Positions 29,358 through 36,558 of a stretch of DNA of 64,000 bases are shown here, in pieces. Made by a program: the position numbers and the translations under genes. Below the pieces are notes generated by a model. It saw nothing but the letters and a program-made list of their open reading frames with translations, was not told where the DNA came from and ran no database searches. Position 1 is the first letter of the stretch, and every line of letters starts with the position of its first letter. The stretch lies in the NCBI GenBank assembly GCA_963759805.1, contig CAVXAT010000001.1:160001-224000 (forward strand), written 5' to 3'. This DNA is from an uncultured bacterium (GTDB lineage Bacteria > Babelota > Babeliae > Babelales > RVW-14).

Positions 29358-30605
29358 CTAAAAAAAATCGTAAATCCATGTTCTCATTTTTTTAAAAACT
29401 TGCCCAAATGCAGTTTTATTCGCAGAGAAAAATTCCTTCTCCCCGCACTGTCCAATAGCATACAGCAACAGCCCATATGCTGTTGAGTAGGCCGGACTTT
29501 TTAGTGCATCCGGAAGAATGTACTGCTCCGTACTTTGAGGTGACCCCACTCGCACAGGCATATCAAGTCTTTGCTCTGCAAGCTCTTTAAGTCCGTCAAG
29601 CAGCCCGCCTCCTCCTGTTAAAACCAGGCCTGCAGGCATAAGTGGTTTAACTCTGTACGCAAGTAATTCATCAATGAGCATGTCTATAACTTCTTCTGCT
29701 CGGAAGCGTAAAATATCTCCCGCATTGCTTAACTGTACAGTTTTTGTTCCGCCATCAAATCCTAAATCTACGTCTATGTAATTATTTTCGAGGGAGGCAA
29801 GTTTTTCAGGTAAAACCGACCCATACATTTTTTTAATCTCTTCAGCTTTTTCTGTTGGGATTCCAAGACCTATTGCCAAGTCATTTGTAAAAAGCGTGCC
29901 TGCTATTGGAATAACTTTTGAGTGCCTTATTCTACCGTCTTTGTAAATTGCAAAATCAGAAGTTCCGCCGCCAATATCAAGAATTCCGGCCCCGAGTTCT
30001 TTTTCATAAGGTGTAAGAACTGCATTAGCTGATGCGAGTTGTTCCAGAACGATATCTGAAACATGGACTCCGGAAAGCTCGCATGATTTTATTATATTTT
30101 GTGCAGAAGCGACTGATCCGGTGATTATGTGTACTTGAGCTTCAAGTCGTACGCCATACATGCCAAGCGAGTCTAAAACAAAATCTTGTCCGTCAATTCT
30201 GAAATATTGAGGAAGGACGTGGATTATCTCTTGATCTTTGGGAATGGCTATCGCTTTTGCTGCTTCAATTACTCTGTCGATATCTGACTGTTTGACTTCA
30301 CGTCCTTTAATGGCAACAACGCCTGTTGAATTGAACGATCTTATGTGCCCGCCGGATATTCCCACGCAGGCAGATTCAATTTTGACTGCAGCCATCTCTT
30401 CGGCTTGTTTGACTGCTTTTTTAATCGAATCAACAGTCTTATTGATATTTACGACAACGCCCTTTTTTAATCCATGTGATGGATGTTGGCCAATACCTGT
30501 TATTTCAAGGTTGCCATTTACATCAGTTGTCGCAATTATGACGCAAATTTTCGTCGTTCCGATATCAATTGCAGCAACGTGCCTTCCAAACAGTTTCTTC
30601 TTCAT
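29358..30605 (-). CDS. ftsA: Cell division protein FtsA
   Basis: IDIGTTKI, GVRLEAQVHI, DIGGGTSD, VLTGGG, YSTAYGLL. Confidence 0.97.
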   Translation of the reverse strand: MKKKLFGRHVAAIDIGTTKICVIIATTDVNGNLEITGIGQHPSHGLKKGVVVNINKTVDSIKKAVKQAEEMAAVKIESACVGISGGHIRSFNSTGVVAIKGREVKQSDIDRVIEAAKAIAIPKDQEIIHVLPQYFRIDGQDFVLDSLGMYGVRLEAQVHIITGSVASAQNIIKSCELSGVHVSDIVLEQLASANAVLTPYEKELGAGILDIGGGTSDFAIYKDGRIRHSKVIPIAGTLFTNDLAIGLGIPTEKAEEIKKMYGSVLPEKLASLENNYIDVDLGFDGGTKTVQLSNAGDILRFRAEEVIDMLIDELLAYRVKPLMPAGLVLTGGGGLLDGLKELAEQRLDMPVRVGSPQSTEQYILPDALKSPAYSTAYGLLLYAIGQCGEKEFFSANKTAFGQVFKKMRTWIYDFF

Positions 30606-31420
30606 TATCCCCCCTCCCTGCCATTAATCCCAAGCTCCGTTTTGACCTGATTTGATGCAATAAACCTTGATATGATGCGATTTTTAAACCTTAGATCTAA
30701 AACAAATTTATGATTTTTCTTTTTCTTCATCAGTTTTTTGTTCAACTCTTGTGCTTTGGTTAGTTTTTTTTTGTCCAAAATAGTTTTTTGATTTGTAAGG
30801 AAACAGTAGTTTATAGCTGAATTTTTTGGAGTCAAGTAAATTTCTGTAGATTTTATAAAATTTATCTCAAAATTTTCCCAGTAATCTGTTGGAATCTGTT
30901 TGATAAAGCTGTAGATATCTTTGGATAATGGGTTCTTAAAAGATTTTTCGTTTATTACAATATTTTTAAGATCAGTGAGATTAAATTGATCAAACAGACT
31001 GGTTTGGAATAATTTCTTTTTATCACCCATAACCAAACTGTTATTAATTATGCAGTACGGTTTAATTCCCACAATTTTAAGATGCGCGGTGAGTGAATCT
31101 ATGCGACATTCAAAGCCTTTAATTATTTTAAATTTTTTTTTGAGATCTTTATAAAATTCGTTTTGATCAAAGGTTAAAAGGGTAGATTGCGTAATGTGAT
31201 TTTGGGCAAATTCACTAATTTGGGCTTCAAGCTCTTTAGAGTAGATATTTTCGTATTCGATTTCGATTTTTTCAAAATGGAGGTTTACACTTGCCTTTTC
31301 CTGGGCAGAGCTAATAAATCTCTTTGTTAGTGAAAATAATGAAGGGACCAGTACTGCGATGAATATCACCAAAACACTGATCCTACTTATCTTATTATAC
31401 TTTGAATTTTCTACCTTCAT
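30605..31420 (-). CDS. Highly divergent FtsQ/DivIB-like bitopic protein
   Basis: Single N-terminal TM helix, C-terminal LDLRFKNRII, and translational coupling to ftsA at the ftsQ position. Confidence 0.6.
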   Translation of the reverse strand: MKVENSKYNKISRISVLVIFIAVLVPSLFSLTKRFISSAQEKASVNLHFEKIEIEYENIYSKELEAQISEFAQNHITQSTLLTFDQNEFYKDLKKKFKIIKGFECRIDSLTAHLKIVGIKPYCIINNSLVMGDKKKLFQTSLFDQFNLTDLKNIVINEKSFKNPLSKDIYSFIKQIPTDYWENFEINFIKSTEIYLTPKNSAINYCFLTNQKTILDKKKLTKAQELNKKLMKKKKNHKFVLDLRFKNRIISRFIASNQVKTELGINGREGG

Positions 31421-31593: not shown

Positions 31594-33012
31594 TTAATAG
31601 CGACGTCTTCGTTGGGACGAGTAGCTGCTATCCCTTGGTCTTTCACGCCTCTCTTCCGAGTACGTAGGCTGCTGAGAAGATGCGTTTTGTGAAAGAAGCT
31701 TAACAAGAGCTGCTGCGACTCTAATCGGTGGATTCTCTTCTGAAACAAGTGACTCAACCGTGTTAATATGTTGATTTAAATCCTGTTCTAATGCTTTTTT
31801 AATTTTTGAAATTAAAGCATGTGCGTTACCTGCTGGCTTACTCACTGATGCAGTGGATGTTGTTGCAGATTGCTCAACCGACTCGGTTGCCGTAAAATGC
31901 TGTTGAGTTACAGTTGTTTTAGTGTAGGTTTTTATGTTTCTAAATGCATAAAAGTCATACTCTGAGACAAAACTGAACGATTTACCAACTTTTCCGGCTC
32001 TACCTGTTCTACCGATTCTATGAACGTATGATTTTTCATCATCCGGAATTTCATAGTTAAAAATAATATCAATGTTTGGGACGTCAATTCCTCGAGCAGC
32101 AACGTCAGTTGCGATTAAAACTTGAATTTTCCCGGATCTGAAACGTTCCATAATTTGATTACGTTTTGGTTGACTGATGTCTCCATGTATGCCTTCAGCG
32201 GCAAATCCATGTTTTCTCAACTTAACCGCAATATTATCAACTTTACGTTTTGTATTACAAAACACAATTGATAAATATGGGTTATGTTCATTTAGAAGTT
32301 TTACCAAAAGTTCTAATTTATTTTTATTCTCGACGTCATAGTAATACTGTTCTACTGTTGTTGCCGGTGCTTTTTCATTTGAAACTTGAACGAGCTTTGG
32401 ATCCTTCTGATGTCGTTTAACTAAGTCCAAGATATCTTTTGGCATTGTTGCAGAGAAGGTGATTGTTTGACGACTCTTGGGCGTTTTATGCAGTATCTTT
32501 TCGATATCAGGCCTGAAACCCATGTTCATCATCTCGTCAGCTTCATCAAGAATAACTGTTGAGACAGTACTTAAATCAATAGATTTTCTATTTATATGAT
32601 CGAGTAATCTACCCGGAGTTCCAACTACAATTTGTGGGCCATGTCTTAATGTGTAAATTTGGCGTTCAATTGCTTGGCCACCGTAAACAGGTATTACGGA
32701 TATCCCTTTTTTATATTTTAAATATTTGTTTAATTCTACAGACACCTGTATTGCAAGTTCGCGTGTTGGGCAAACTATGAGGGCCTGTACATTTTTCTTC
32801 TTATCATCGATCTTATCTACCAAAGGCAAGCTGAATGCTGCAGTTTTTCCAGTTCCCGTCATTGCAAGTCCTGTGACATCGCGCCCCTGCATGATGAACG
32901 GAATTGCTTGTGATTGAATTGGAGAAGTTTCCGTATAGCCAAGATCTGAGATGGCTTTTAAAACTTCTTTTGATAAATTTAAATCTTCGAATTTTACTTT
33001 TAAATTATCCAC
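31594..33012 (-). CDS. DEAD-box RNA helicase (DeaD/CshA-like)
   Basis: Q motif, TGTGKT, PTRELA, DEAD, SAT, ARGID, HRIGRTGR. Confidence 0.97.
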   Translation of the reverse strand: MDNLKVKFEDLNLSKEVLKAISDLGYTETSPIQSQAIPFIMQGRDVTGLAMTGTGKTAAFSLPLVDKIDDKKKNVQALIVCPTRELAIQVSVELNKYLKYKKGISVIPVYGGQAIERQIYTLRHGPQIVVGTPGRLLDHINRKSIDLSTVSTVILDEADEMMNMGFRPDIEKILHKTPKSRQTITFSATMPKDILDLVKRHQKDPKLVQVSNEKAPATTVEQYYYDVENKNKLELLVKLLNEHNPYLSIVFCNTKRKVDNIAVKLRKHGFAAEGIHGDISQPKRNQIMERFRSGKIQVLIATDVAARGIDVPNIDIIFNYEIPDDEKSYVHRIGRTGRAGKVGKSFSFVSEYDFYAFRNIKTYTKTTVTQQHFTATESVEQSATTSTASVSKPAGNAHALISKIKKALEQDLNQHINTVESLVSEENPPIRVAAALVKLLSQNASSQQPTYSEERRERPRDSSYSSQRRRRY

Positions 33013-33358
33013 GTTTAAATATTTCCTTTTAATTTGATGTTAACTGTAATTTGTAAATGTAACTTGTAAGTGTAACTTATAAGTTCAATTGGTTAAACTG
33101 ATAACCGATCAAGCTTGTAATTTGGATTAATTAGATAAGATACTTAAAGAAAGAAGACCGAATTTCTTTAATGCTTACTTTATCTCATAATAACATGTTA
33201 ATTCTGTTTGTCAAGAAACAAATGTGTGCATAGAAATTAAGGATCTTTTTTAGATTATCTCAAGAATATACACATAATGCATACATGTCGAATATGTCGA
33301 AAAATATAGAAAAATATGATATTTACGCGAAAAACTATGCAAAATCGTTGAAAATAAG

Positions 33359-33744
33359 AGGGCAGTCAGTCTCTAACCCATAAATCTTAAAAGATTCAAG
33401 ATCTTAGAAGATTCAATTGCATCGCAGTGTTACGAATTTTTTCACGAATGAAAGTTCGGAGAAAAACAGTAACATTGCAATAACTAAGTCAAAAACATCG
33501 ATCAACCTTGGTCATCGACACTGACAAATGCTCAAACTTAAAGCTAGTCCTACCAAAAGCTGGAGGGATGAGCTTTTTCCCAGCCAGTAAAGTTTGAGTA
33601 TATCAGTATACTGCGTAGTAACTATTTAAGTTGGCAACTTTGAAAGTTAAAAACTTGAAAAGTTAAAAACTTGGAAAGTTGGTATACTTAAAGAGCTAAA
33701 AAACTCTAAGAGTTATTACCGCCATACTGGTCAGTGGCTGCCCT
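33359..33744 (+). ncRNA. Candidate large structured ncRNA of unknown family
   Basis: Terminal helix AGGGCAGTCA/TGGCTGCCCT encloses four long internal arms and several mini-hairpins; wobble pairs are G-U on the + strand; no ORF of 60 aa or more. Confidence 0.7.
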
Positions 33745-33845
33745 TTGACTTTTAAATCTTAGTAATTTCAATTTCTAATCTTATTCTAATTTATTTTATA
33801 TGTGAAAAGCAATATTTTGATAAAAAATCTTAATAGAAAATATTT

Positions 33846-34583
33846 TTAGACAATTTTGGTCTTTGCAGCGGCCAGGAACATCAAGATTCCGGCAGCTACA
33901 GATGCATTGTATGAGATATCAGCGGTACGCTGGGGTAGGGTGACCTTTTCCCCCAAAGATTGAATATTTTTGCTAATTCCGATGGCTTCGTTGCCAATTA
34001 CAAGGCAAAGAGGCCTTTTGAATTCAACTTCGACTGCATTTTTACCATCCAATACTGCCATGTAAAGATTATAGCCGACATTTTTCAGCTCCTGGGCAGC
34101 GTGAGCGGCTGAGGGTGCAACGTAAATGTTCAAATGCTCAGCCAAACCAGCCGAGGCCTTAAATGATGCAGGAGTCAAAACGGCAGAGCCTTTTTTGCAT
34201 AAAACTACACCATCGATGCCGGCGCAGTATGCCGAACGTAAAATTGCTCCAAGATTTCGCACATCCTGGATTCCGTCGAGCATGAGCACAAAAGGCTTTG
34301 AATCAGGGCTAAAAACCTTTGAAGAGTACTTAAATGGTGAGACCCAGGCAAGGATGTTGTTATGATCCATTGTTCCTGTCATTTTATCAATAACTTGCTT
34401 TGATACGTACTGAATCATGGGCGATTTTTGTGGAAGATAAGATTTGATGCGCTCCCACCCCTCGGGCAGAGGTCTTGTTGTATAAATAGAGATAATTCTG
34501 CGTTTTTTGGCCTTCAGAACTTCGATTATTGAGTGCACACCATAAATCAGGTCATTGGGCTGTTGGTTTGAGGTATTTTTCAT
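33846..34583 (-). CDS. rlmB: 23S rRNA Gm2251 methyltransferase (TrmH/SpoU family)
   Basis: IYGVHSI, LDGIQDVRNLGAILRSA, LVIGNE, SYNASVAAGI. Confidence 0.88.
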   Translation of the reverse strand: MKNTSNQQPNDLIYGVHSIIEVLKAKKRRIISIYTTRPLPEGWERIKSYLPQKSPMIQYVSKQVIDKMTGTMDHNNILAWVSPFKYSSKVFSPDSKPFVLMLDGIQDVRNLGAILRSAYCAGIDGVVLCKKGSAVLTPASFKASAGLAEHLNIYVAPSAAHAAQELKNVGYNLYMAVLDGKNAVEVEFKRPLCLVIGNEAIGISKNIQSLGEKVTLPQRTADISYNASVAAGILMFLAAAKTKIV

Positions 34584-34716: not shown

Positions 34717-36558
34717 CTATTTGTTACCAAGTTTCTTGGGCTGTCCTTTTCTGCTGCCATCTCGATAGATTGTTACACCCTTAAGATTTTTTAAATAGGC
34801 TTGATAAAAAATATCAACAATTTCTTGCACGCTGGTGGTTGATGGAACATTAATGGTCTTTGAGATTGATTCATCTACGACCGATTGTAAGGATTCCATC
34901 ATATCCAGATGCTCCTGAGGTGAGAGCTCTGATGCTGTTAAAAAAATATGGCGAATATTGACAGGAATTTCTGATAACTCACCGATACATCCTGATGTTT
35001 CTATTTTTTCCATTAAAACTGGATCAACTTTGATTCCAGCATCAGTAAGTGCTTTTTGTAGAATAGGGTTAAGTTGTTTTTGTGCTTCAACTAAGGAGAA
35101 TTGTGGCTCTATTCCGTGCGAAGCATTGATAAGCAGTGAGCTTCTGCCGGTTGGTGGCAATGCAATAGTAGATGCATTGCGTAAGAGTTTCGTTTCTCTG
35201 ATTTTTTTTGCTAATTCATGCCACATATTGGTAGACACATGAGGAGCGGAAATTTTTCCAAATCGTTGTTCAATAAATCCGGGATTATCATTGTATCGGC
35301 AACCTTGCACAAGGAACATTGCCTCAAAAGATCCTCTAATCTTTGCAAGTTCATGAGATGCTGATTTTGAAATGTAATTGATGAAGGCAATAATATCTTT
35401 AGCTAAGTCTCTAGCTTGTTCGTCGGAATATGAGATGTTAAATTTCATGAAAAGATCGGCAAGGCCGCATATGCCAATACCGATTTTGCGTTTTGCCCTC
35501 ATAATTTTCTTTTGTTCTTCATAAGCATATCTGTCAATACTTAATTCCAAGGCATTATCGAGAGCTCTCACCATTAATCGTGTTGCTCGTTCTAATTTTT
35601 CAAAATCAATTGCCAGAGTTTTTTCTTGTCCTGCTATAAGGAATTTTGCCACGTTTATATAGCCAAATTGACAGCTTTCTCCAGCGGCTAGTCCAACTTC
35701 TCCGCATGGTGCAACAGCAATATAATCGCCAACGCCAGGCGTAGGATTGCCTTCATTAAGTCGACTTATGAAAATAAGCCCTGGATCGCCGCATATGTAT
35801 ACGCTTTTTGCTATTTCTTCCAAAAGCACTTTTGCTGATACTTCTTGGCCATCACGTAATCGATATACTGTATTGCGCTTAAAGGCCTGTATAAAATCAT
35901 CATCTATGTTGACTGAGATGTTAAATTTCAAGCCCTCGCCACGCTCATCAGCCTGGTTTTTTGCGTTAATAAATTCGCGAATTCTAGGATGGGACACTGA
36001 AAGGATGGCTATATTTCCAACGGGACGATCTTCTTTTCCGCTCTTTGCTCCTTGCACAGCGATATCGTTGAGCGCTTTTAAAACTGATACAGGATCTTCG
36101 AGTTCGTCGAGGCTAAATCCGGTGCCCATGCCATCTTGATGCAGGCGGTCAATGACTTCCTTAATTGTTGCCATACCTTTTTTCAAGTCGATCGGGGGTA
36201 CGGTGCATGCAGAGAAAGGTTTGTCGCTGTATCTGCCGGCATTGGTCAAAATGGGTGTGCTCATGACACAGTAACCATCATCCAAAAATGACCCAAATTC
36301 ACATTCTAATCTCTGTATTTCGTCGGGGTCTGTTTTAAATTTTGTTTCGATTGAAAATAGGGTATGAATGACGCGCTCCATCATATGCTGTGGTGATTCT
36401 CCGAGGGCAAGAATCTTTCCGTCATGCAGAATAGATTCGGCAAGACTTGTAGGTCGATATGTAGAATGGTAATTTGTGCCCATGGCAAAAATAGAGATAC
36501 TTGGAATTGTTATTATAGTTATAATCAAAAATATGTGTGTAGCAAATGAATATTTCAT
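34717..36558 (-). CDS. nrdJ: Class II (AdoCbl-type) ribonucleotide reductase-like protein with hydrophobic leader
   Basis: STPILTNAG, SAC, GMGTG, FNISV, GDPGLIF, PCGE, RKIGIGICGLAD, PPTG, GIEP, SISKTIN, KGVTIYRDGSR; no class I YY pair. Confidence 0.85.
   Translation of the reverse strand: MKYSFATHIFLIITIITIPSISIFAMGTNYHSTYRPTSLAESILHDGKILALGESPQHMMERVIHTLFSIETKFKTDPDEIQRLECEFGSFLDDGYCVMSTPILTNAGRYSDKPFSACTVPPIDLKKGMATIKEVIDRLHQDGMGTGFSLDELEDPVSVLKALNDIAVQGAKSGKEDRPVGNIAILSVSHPRIREFINAKNQADERGEGLKFNISVNIDDDFIQAFKRNTVYRLRDGQEVSAKVLLEEIAKSVYICGDPGLIFISRLNEGNPTPGVGDYIAVAPCGEVGLAAGESCQFGYINVAKFLIAGQEKTLAIDFEKLERATRLMVRALDNALELSIDRYAYEEQKKIMRAKRKIGIGICGLADLFMKFNISYSDEQARDLAKDIIAFINYISKSASHELAKIRGSFEAMFLVQGCRYNDNPGFIEQRFGKISAPHVSTNMWHELAKKIRETKLLRNASTIALPPTGRSSLLINASHGIEPQFSLVEAQKQLNPILQKALTDAGIKVDPVLMEKIETSGCIGELSEIPVNIRHIFLTASELSPQEHLDMMESLQSVVDESISKTINVPSTTSVQEIVDIFYQAYLKNLKGVTIYRDGSRKGQPKKLGNK

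Follow-up and report, generated by a model that had tools for sequence, protein, structure and literature searches.

An undescribed structured RNA downstream of rlmB in Babeliales bacteria and its predicted transcription from the rlmB strand

Introduction

The Babeliales (Babelota) are a group reported as living inside protists. In the 64-kb stretch of DNA analyzed here (the window), which comes from the genome of one such bacterium (G000), two minus-strand genes, coding for a DEAD-box helicase and for an RlmB-like 23S rRNA methyltransferase, are separated by a gap extending from position 33013 to position 33845. An earlier reading made from the letters alone (the sequence-only reading) had proposed that this gap is free of ORFs and that positions 33359-33744 correspond to a large, previously undescribed RNA, read from the plus strand and divergent with the helicase gene. 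The locus thus raises the questions of whether such an RNA exists, which strand encodes it, whether it belongs to the helicase gene or stands on its own, and what role it might have. These were addressed by folding analysis, searches against known families and comparison with related genomes, in particular those of genus g1 (G000, G001, G002 and G003) and of a second genus, g12 (G014, G025, G030 and G033).

Results

A strong, single-copy fold without a match in Rfam

The gap is bounded by the gene of a CshA/DeaD-like DEAD-box helicase (31594..33012, minus strand), recognized through NCBIfam and Pfam matches, and by that of the RlmB-like methyltransferase (33846..34583, minus strand), assigned by synteny and by a match to TIGR00186 (E 4e-45) that lies slightly below the cut-off. 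As had been claimed, it does not contain any ORF of 60 aa. The region 33359-33744 folds at -123.3 kcal/mol on the plus strand (z -8.76) and at -117.2 kcal/mol on the minus strand (z -7.10), and none of 100 shuffles folded as well in either case. Every helix named in the sequence-only reading was found in place, and the element is present in a single copy in G000. When 87 ORF-free segments of G000 of 386 nt and similar GC content were folded, three others reached -117 kcal/mol or lower, and by eye these consist of inverted-repeat elements and a DnaA-box-like repeat.

No Rfam family was matched by the RNA or by its homologues. At the gathering score the window contained three tRNAs and nothing else, and E-value scans of the RNA region and its homologues returned chance matches only (E 0.19 or worse). 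RNase P RNA, tmRNA and SRP RNA, whose signatures had already been reported as lacking, are excluded by the presence of full-length rnpB, ssrA and ffs genes on other contigs (C2, C5 and C14). The 6S RNA model (RF00013) gave no match at the RNA region, in the rest of G000, or in any of the 35 genomes of the family, the search being positive in 5 of 14 control genomes, and a crude scan for 6S-like rods returned 26 matches in 1166 windows, the best eight of which were unconvincing. Apparent similarities to FMN, cobalamin, T-box and telomerase-template motifs found no support in Rfam and were dropped. A survey of the open-licence literature yielded no paper on structured RNA of the phylum (Dependentiae/Babelota), on 6S RNA in it, or on an rlmB-linked RNA motif. 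The proposal of a large undescribed structured non-coding RNA is supported by the lack of an Rfam match and by homologues that preserve the pairings (see below): this is a real, undescribed structured RNA.

Other features of the locus and the genome deserve mention. In G000 a class II (NrdJ-like) ribonucleotide reductase gene lies upstream of rlmB (window 34717-36558, minus strand), its place being taken in G002 and G003 by ybeY, which abuts rlmB. The space downstream of rlmB is a hot spot for insertions: G007 carries foreign genes there (L185), in G001 (G001:C13; L034 / L187) rlmB is separated from the RNA promoter by an inserted DUF6290 gene and a gene for a ParE-type toxin, and the corresponding gaps of G215, G110 and G048 (L218, L237, L244) show long perfect inverted repeats. 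A gene at window 30605-31420 (minus strand), before ftsA, has no Pfam or NCBIfam match; it occupies the ftsQ position, is conserved at 24% in G011, and is called ftsQ-like by position only. A dispersed family of inverted repeats accounts for the strongest AT-rich intergenic folds of G000 (C2:214161, C4:96671, C2:220491, C14:5431) and showed no BLASTN similarity to the RNA. Another strong fold, at G000:C8:146941-147326, is made of TTATCCACA-type and TTATCAACA-type repeats, which we take to be DnaA boxes, beside an AT-rich hairpin, and looks like a replication origin. A tRNA-Ile gene adjoins a tRNA-Ala gene in the region of G000:C1:253000, and neither 16S nor 23S rRNA was found anywhere in the G000 assembly, in which the rRNA is unassembled.

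Homologues in genus g1

The RNA is present at the same locus in all four g1 genomes. When 61 relatives were searched by BLASTN, full-length matches were obtained in G002 (E 6e-87) and G003 (E 2e-60); the version in G001 is shorter, about 250 nt, and was located by synteny. All four RNAs fold far below their shuffles, and no conserved small ORF was found. In the four sequences, covariation within g1 was not significant (40 of 500 shuffles). A covariance model built on the 3' half of the g1 RNA (R1) detected g1 only among 35 genomes of the family and 150 of the order, with four weak additional matches: those in G006 (E 3.6e-5) and G012:C26 were rejected, both being in coding DNA, and the remaining two are poor alignments. 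Beyond these genomes, a pattern scan of GTDB contigs gave five matches (G001, G002, G003 and two by chance), and one of metagenomes gave 64, of which three are real, all near G002. Scans of viral contigs returned chance matches only (three in all), as did BLASTN against phages and plasmids, where the matches were short.

The RNA is most probably encoded on the minus strand

The assignment to the plus strand had been based on G-U pairs. A recount of 12 helices in G000 confirmed seven G-U and no A-C on that strand, but that this fixes the strand was not confirmed. In the homologues, the closing helix and arms 1, 2 and 4 of the sequence-only reading gain A-C mismatches on the plus strand, which are G-U pairs on the minus strand, and arm 3 alone mostly retains plus-strand wobbles. 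Five hand-picked shared helices show nine G-U types and no A-C in their variable columns on the minus strand, a count biased by the picking. In an unguided consensus fold of the well-aligned 3' half, the minus strand gave -42.9 with a G-U:A-C ratio of 13:0, versus -33.6 and 2:3 for the plus strand; at full length, where G001 is misaligned, the two strands tie (-93.6 vs -94.8). The z-score of G001 is -5.15 on the minus strand versus -2.30 on the plus strand, and G000 and G002 fold slightly better on the plus strand. As for the flanks, of the 139 positions that would lie upstream on the plus strand, only 16 are identical in the four species; positions 33760-33845 are identical at 59 of 86 and read as a sigma70-type promoter facing the minus strand.

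A plus-strand RNA divergent from the helicase gene, or transcription of both strands, would agree with the wobbles of G000 and of arm 3, the greater stability of P3 (see below) on the plus strand and the z-scores of G000 and G002. We nevertheless regard it as very unlikely: no single plus-strand fold is common to the four species (pairing probabilities 0.00-0.75 for P5 and 0.00-0.64 for P2), conservation upstream on that strand is low, and both the conserved promoter and the terminator found in g12 face the opposite way. The RNA is thus predicted, with high confidence, to be transcribed from the minus strand, that of rlmB and the helicase gene, as the shared helices, the promoter and the g12 terminator all indicate. 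The strand given in the sequence-only reading was probably wrong, and the divergent arrangement with the helicase gene finds no support.

A four-way junction with conserved and variable arms

Read on the minus strand, the body of the RNA (33359..33744) is closed by helix P1 (33738-33744 with 33359-33365) and organized around a four-way junction of P1, P2, P4 and P5. The same junction appears in the minus-strand folds of G000, G001 and G002; in G003, P2 is missing from the best fold (probability 0.35). P1 has a probability of 1.00 in three species, and G001 prefers a shifted register. The P2 arm (33519..33736) is formed by 33730-36 with 33519-25 and encloses the variable arm and P3; its seven pairs are kept in all four species, variable positions continuing to pair via G-U on the minus strand. 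This pairing had been noticed before as an alternative to the main fold; it does exist, but as a conserved helix of the core. The second alternative proposed then (33584-89 with 33725-30) is broken in all three homologues.

The variable arm (33601..33724, minus strand; arm 4 of the earlier description) consists of nested short repeats in G000 and is absent from G001, identity being 5 of 124 positions in the four species and, when only the three closely related species are compared, 52 of 124. The P3 arm (33531..33598, minus strand) holds a conserved, partly unpaired A-run and a C-rich segment (33562-33578) whose core is near-invariant in the four species; this arm folds better on the plus strand in G001, G002 and G003. 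The P4 hairpin (33498..33518, minus strand) shows one compensatory and two G-U changes, with a UNCG-type loop in G001, and the probability of its outer stem on the minus strand is 0.91-0.96 in all four species. P5 (33369..33496, minus strand) is formed by 33488-96 with 33369-77 and encloses P5a and P5b. All nine of its pairs are maintained on the minus strand in the four species, with probabilities of 0.91-0.99 versus 0.00-0.75 on the plus strand, and the core of P5a is invariant at 33456-66 and 33435-47.

Predicted promoter, leader and 3' end

The predicted promoter consists of a -35 hexamer TTGCTT (33807..33812, minus strand), found as TTG(A/C)TT at all eight RNA loci of the two genera, and a -10 hexamer TAGAAT (33783..33788, minus strand), where TA..AT is kept at the eight loci; the spacer between them has a fixed length of 18 nt and a diverging sequence. 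It is followed by a 12-nt leader, AGA(A/G)ATTGA(A/C)AT (33765..33776, minus strand), also present at 8 of 8 loci, and transcription is predicted from the position of the -10 hexamer to start at about 33776. The promoter-leader pattern was built from these eight loci, so that its exact match in eight of 261 genomes holds by construction. Allowing two mismatches, five further matches were obtained; four are promoters of ordinary mRNAs and the fifth is an intergenic site of unclear nature in G004. The latter (L189; G004:C9:10357, minus strand) is located in a convergent intergenic gap and is followed by four short hairpins, with no closing helix. A relaxed pattern gave nine off-locus matches and nine in the control; seven of the off-locus sites were folded and none was structured, the other two being orthologues of one of the seven. 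Promoters of the same type precede ordinary genes at a rate equal to that of the control, for example the ftsQ-like gene of G011, and in G000 the ftsQ-like gene is still preceded by a separate promoter-like site. The promoter and leader were present at 8 of 30 rlmB loci of the family and at none of 40 further rlmB-downstream regions (39 genomes from other families plus G009); inspection of seven of these 40 with long gaps did not reveal a similar unit.

At the other end, no intrinsic terminator was found between the RNA and the helicase gene. The intervening spacer (33215..33358, minus strand) is poorly conserved and contains more C than G (22:16, 23:9, 23:9 and 14:6 in the four g1 species), being in the top 2-3% of intergenic windows for C-richness in three species and in the top 23% in G000. 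The genome contains a rho gene, and the spacer is a candidate Rho termination zone.

Relation to the helicase gene

Since the RNA is assigned to the minus strand, it lies upstream of the helicase gene, which recalls the leader of E. coli deaD. As described in PMC7430678, the deaD mRNA has an autoregulatory 5' leader of 838 nt. In both cases a long non-coding stretch precedes a DEAD-box helicase gene of the same strand and Rho is present; unlike in E. coli, a separate proximal helicase promoter is predicted here, and similar RNA units occur without a helicase gene. This promoter, TTGACA-16-TATTAT (33187..33214, minus strand; 11 of 12 consensus positions), is conserved in the four g1 species. 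A similar one precedes the helicase gene in the sister genus represented by G007, where the gene is elsewhere, behind a 172-nt gap, and the RNA is absent. A deaD-type system would have a distal promoter accounting for most of the helicase mRNA, and Rho-dependent feedback; here there are two candidate promoters, that of the RNA and that of the helicase gene, besides rho. A hairpin at window 33143-33172 (minus strand), immediately after the helicase promoter, is kept in G000, G002 and G003 and not in G001, and is a possible short regulatory leader.

The RNA could be conceived as part of a long 5' leader (760 nt) of the mRNA of the helicase, which would remodel it to trigger Rho termination or decay as in the E. 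coli precedent (PMC7430678). The common strand, the C-rich spacer without a detected intrinsic terminator, the presence of rho, and the toxin-antitoxin pair of G001, which separates the RNA from rlmB and not from the helicase gene, agree with this. The proximal promoter, however, is strong and apparently ancestral, and the RNA does not travel with the helicase gene: model R1 found no RNA at any of 26 other helicase-orthologue loci, it is lacking in G007, and no helicase or ftsQAZ genes were present in the 2.6-9.6 kb retrieved downstream of the units of three g12 genomes (a weaker objection if the g12 units are unrelated). A leader function of this kind appears improbable. That the RNA is not the helicase 5' UTR, as had been stated on other grounds, probably holds because the helicase gene has its own promoter and the position of the RNA tracks rlmB. 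The helicase is probably a neighbor of the RNA rather than its partner, and the link between them looks incidental. We consider it likely that the RNA forms a minus-strand gene of its own.

Similar units after rlmB in a second genus

The region that follows rlmB in genus g12 was singled out by a weak profile match (E 0.0015), and the four g12 genomes were found to carry the same promoter and 12-nt leader directly after rlmB, so that the RNA locus follows rlmB in two genera by synteny. The g12 units are 200-245 nt long, start 27-29 nt after the predicted transcription start and are closed by a helix of 12-13 bp similar to P1 of g1. The units of G033, G030 and G014 fold as four-way junctions; both partners differ in 13 of the 85 pairs (0 of 500 shuffles), the structure being derived from the same three sequences, and all five changes in P1 give G-U pairs when read on the rlmB strand. 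These three genomes next show a terminator hairpin with a U run (found by scan in G014, folded in G033 and G030), and then a gene on the same strand, whose start codon is about 45 nt from the terminator in G014. In G025 two related P1-closed units of 201 and 216 nt lie a few nt apart behind one promoter (G025:C2:16983-17410, minus strand; L042:929-1356). The terminator scan was negative there, yet a long hairpin carrying a run of U can be seen, and the gene that comes next is convergent. Across genera, the genes found downstream show no relation to one another.

An attenuator or riboswitch-like sensor controlling whichever gene follows, with tandem aptamers in G025, would suit the succession of promoter, fold, terminator and same-strand gene in G033, G030 and G014, as well as the short distance to the start codon in G014. 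Given the convergent gene of G025, the unrelated downstream genes, the failure to find a ligand core conserved across genera and the lack of an Rfam riboswitch match, we consider it very doubtful. A domesticated or decaying inverted-repeat element of MITE/REP type, without RNA function, is a no more convincing reading, and we think it highly unlikely. Across the order, the gap downstream of rlmB does gather inverted repeats as well as genes of foreign origin, G025 has tandem units and P1 can be read as terminal repeats; against this, there is one copy in G000, g12-type ends occur at the rlmB locus only in 261 genomes, strand-biased G-U and compensatory changes fit RNA pairing, and the promoter is conserved.

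The preferred reading remains that of a stand-alone RNA, and the question is then whether the g1 and g12 RNAs are the same. The bodies of the g1 RNA, the three g12 units and the G025 units are unalignable, without profile matches between genera, and no 8-mer is common to at least two units of each genus. Model R1 and a model built from the three g12 genomes (R2), which detects only those three, do not cross-detect. In the rlmB tree g1 and g12 are not sisters, three changes being needed to explain the distribution of the RNA, which was found in 8 of 35 family genomes. Because the bodies cannot be aligned, homology is not demonstrated; we infer it from locus, promoter, leader, P1 and topology only. 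A single family with fast-changing arms seems to us rather probable, and two unrelated RNAs behind a homologous promoter less so.

Discussion

An RNA of 250-390 nt kept, together with its own promoter, in the reduced genome of an intracellular bacterium is probably of use to it. In the scheme that we propose, transcription would begin at about 33776 and end by Rho termination in the C-rich spacer in g1 and at the intrinsic terminator in g12; leader and trailer would be trimmed to give the P1-closed unit, and the conserved frame of this unit would bind a protein, with the arms free to vary. That G025 has two units in tandem behind a single promoter suggests processing to P1-closed units. The frame (promoter, leader, closing helix and junction) persists when the arm sequence does not, which favors recognition of shape rather than a seed in common or a pocket for a ligand. 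A processed, stand-alone RNA, recognized by a protein through the shape of its closing helix and four-way junction, is thus our working model, held tentatively.

One alternative is a minus-strand sRNA that would pair with mRNAs, using the C-rich segment (33562-78) or the leader as seed, the rest being a stabilizing scaffold. The C-rich segment is complementary to Shine-Dalgarno-type sequences, near-invariant in four species and partly unpaired; no transcribed stretch is better conserved between the two genera than the leader, and the promoter and terminator of g12 fit an sRNA gene. However, CCUCC itself tends to be paired, at the tip of P3, a seed common to both genera was not found, the seven other exact matches of the leader in G000 appear by eye to be in-frame coding sequence rather than targets, and pairing requires neither the invariant P5a core nor the four-way junction. 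We consider such a mode of action unlikely.

Returning to the protein-binding model, its partner could by analogy be RNA polymerase, the RNA acting as a 6S/Ms1-like sink. The polymerase is the lead candidate because 6S RNA was undetected in the 35 family genomes and Ms1 homologues were likewise found by synteny; it remains a doubtful one because the fold departs from the rod of 6S and the RNA was found in only 8 of 35 family genomes, a patchy presence for a housekeeping regulator. As for other RNA-binding proteins, CsrA was found in none of five genomes (control positive), nor was Ro60 (TROVE) in five genomes 88-94% complete (control positive in 2 of 14); a search for Hfq with PF01423 gave no match, but the bacterial controls were also missed.

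A bolder and rather unlikely extension would be a Babeliales family built as frame and payload, in which promoter, leader, P1 and junction are fixed, arms are swapped between genera and tandem units are cut from one transcript, and which either replaces 6S as a branched RNA-polymerase sink or acts on the protist host. If the RNAs of the two genera are one family, it is one that is invisible to sequence and covariance searches and was found only through its conserved promoter and locus. This could suggest a route to further bacterial RNAs that are still missing, among them equivalents of 6S that have escaped detection.

Comparison with known RNA classes

Several known classes were considered. 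A CsrB/Rsm-type sponge RNA finds no support, single units having one to three GGA motifs (eight across the G025 tandem) and CsrA having been found in none of the five genomes searched. In C-rich sRNAs of staphylococci and Bacillus (RNAIII, RsaE), long-range 5'-3' pairing is combined with a conserved C-rich segment complementary to ribosome-binding sites. The RNA described here shares the long-range pairing and the conserved C-rich segment, which unlike in those sRNAs is confined to g1 and partly paired. Bacterial Y RNAs have a conserved closing stem, a variable body and tandem copies, as is the case here, with the difference that neither a Ro60/TROVE gene (five of five genomes) nor an Rfam match was found. 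raiA-motif, ROOL and GOLLD RNAs are likewise described as multi-domain bacterial non-coding RNAs with paired ends and no established function; the RNA reported here differs in its far narrower range, in arm sequences that turn over completely between genera and in having no Rfam match.

The remaining comparison is with RNAs that bind RNA polymerase: 6S binds the holoenzyme and Ms1 the core enzyme. With respect to Ms1 (about 300 nt, with a central bubble and short hairpins at both ends), the length fits; P3 has a one-sided 12-nt bulge in place of a bubble, and the ends are paired in P1. According to PMC9130861, 6S RNA is a rod of about 180-200 nt with a central bubble, and Ms1 homologues were located by synteny, BLAST similarity being absent. 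The predicted fold described here departs from 6S, being a 245-386-nt four-way junction with long arms rather than a rod, with a patchy presence in 8 of 35 family genomes. It resembles 6S and the Ms1 of Actinobacteria (PMC9130861) in being a probable stand-alone structured RNA of 200-400 nt whose homologues are reached through their gene neighborhood, in a group where 6S has gone undetected.
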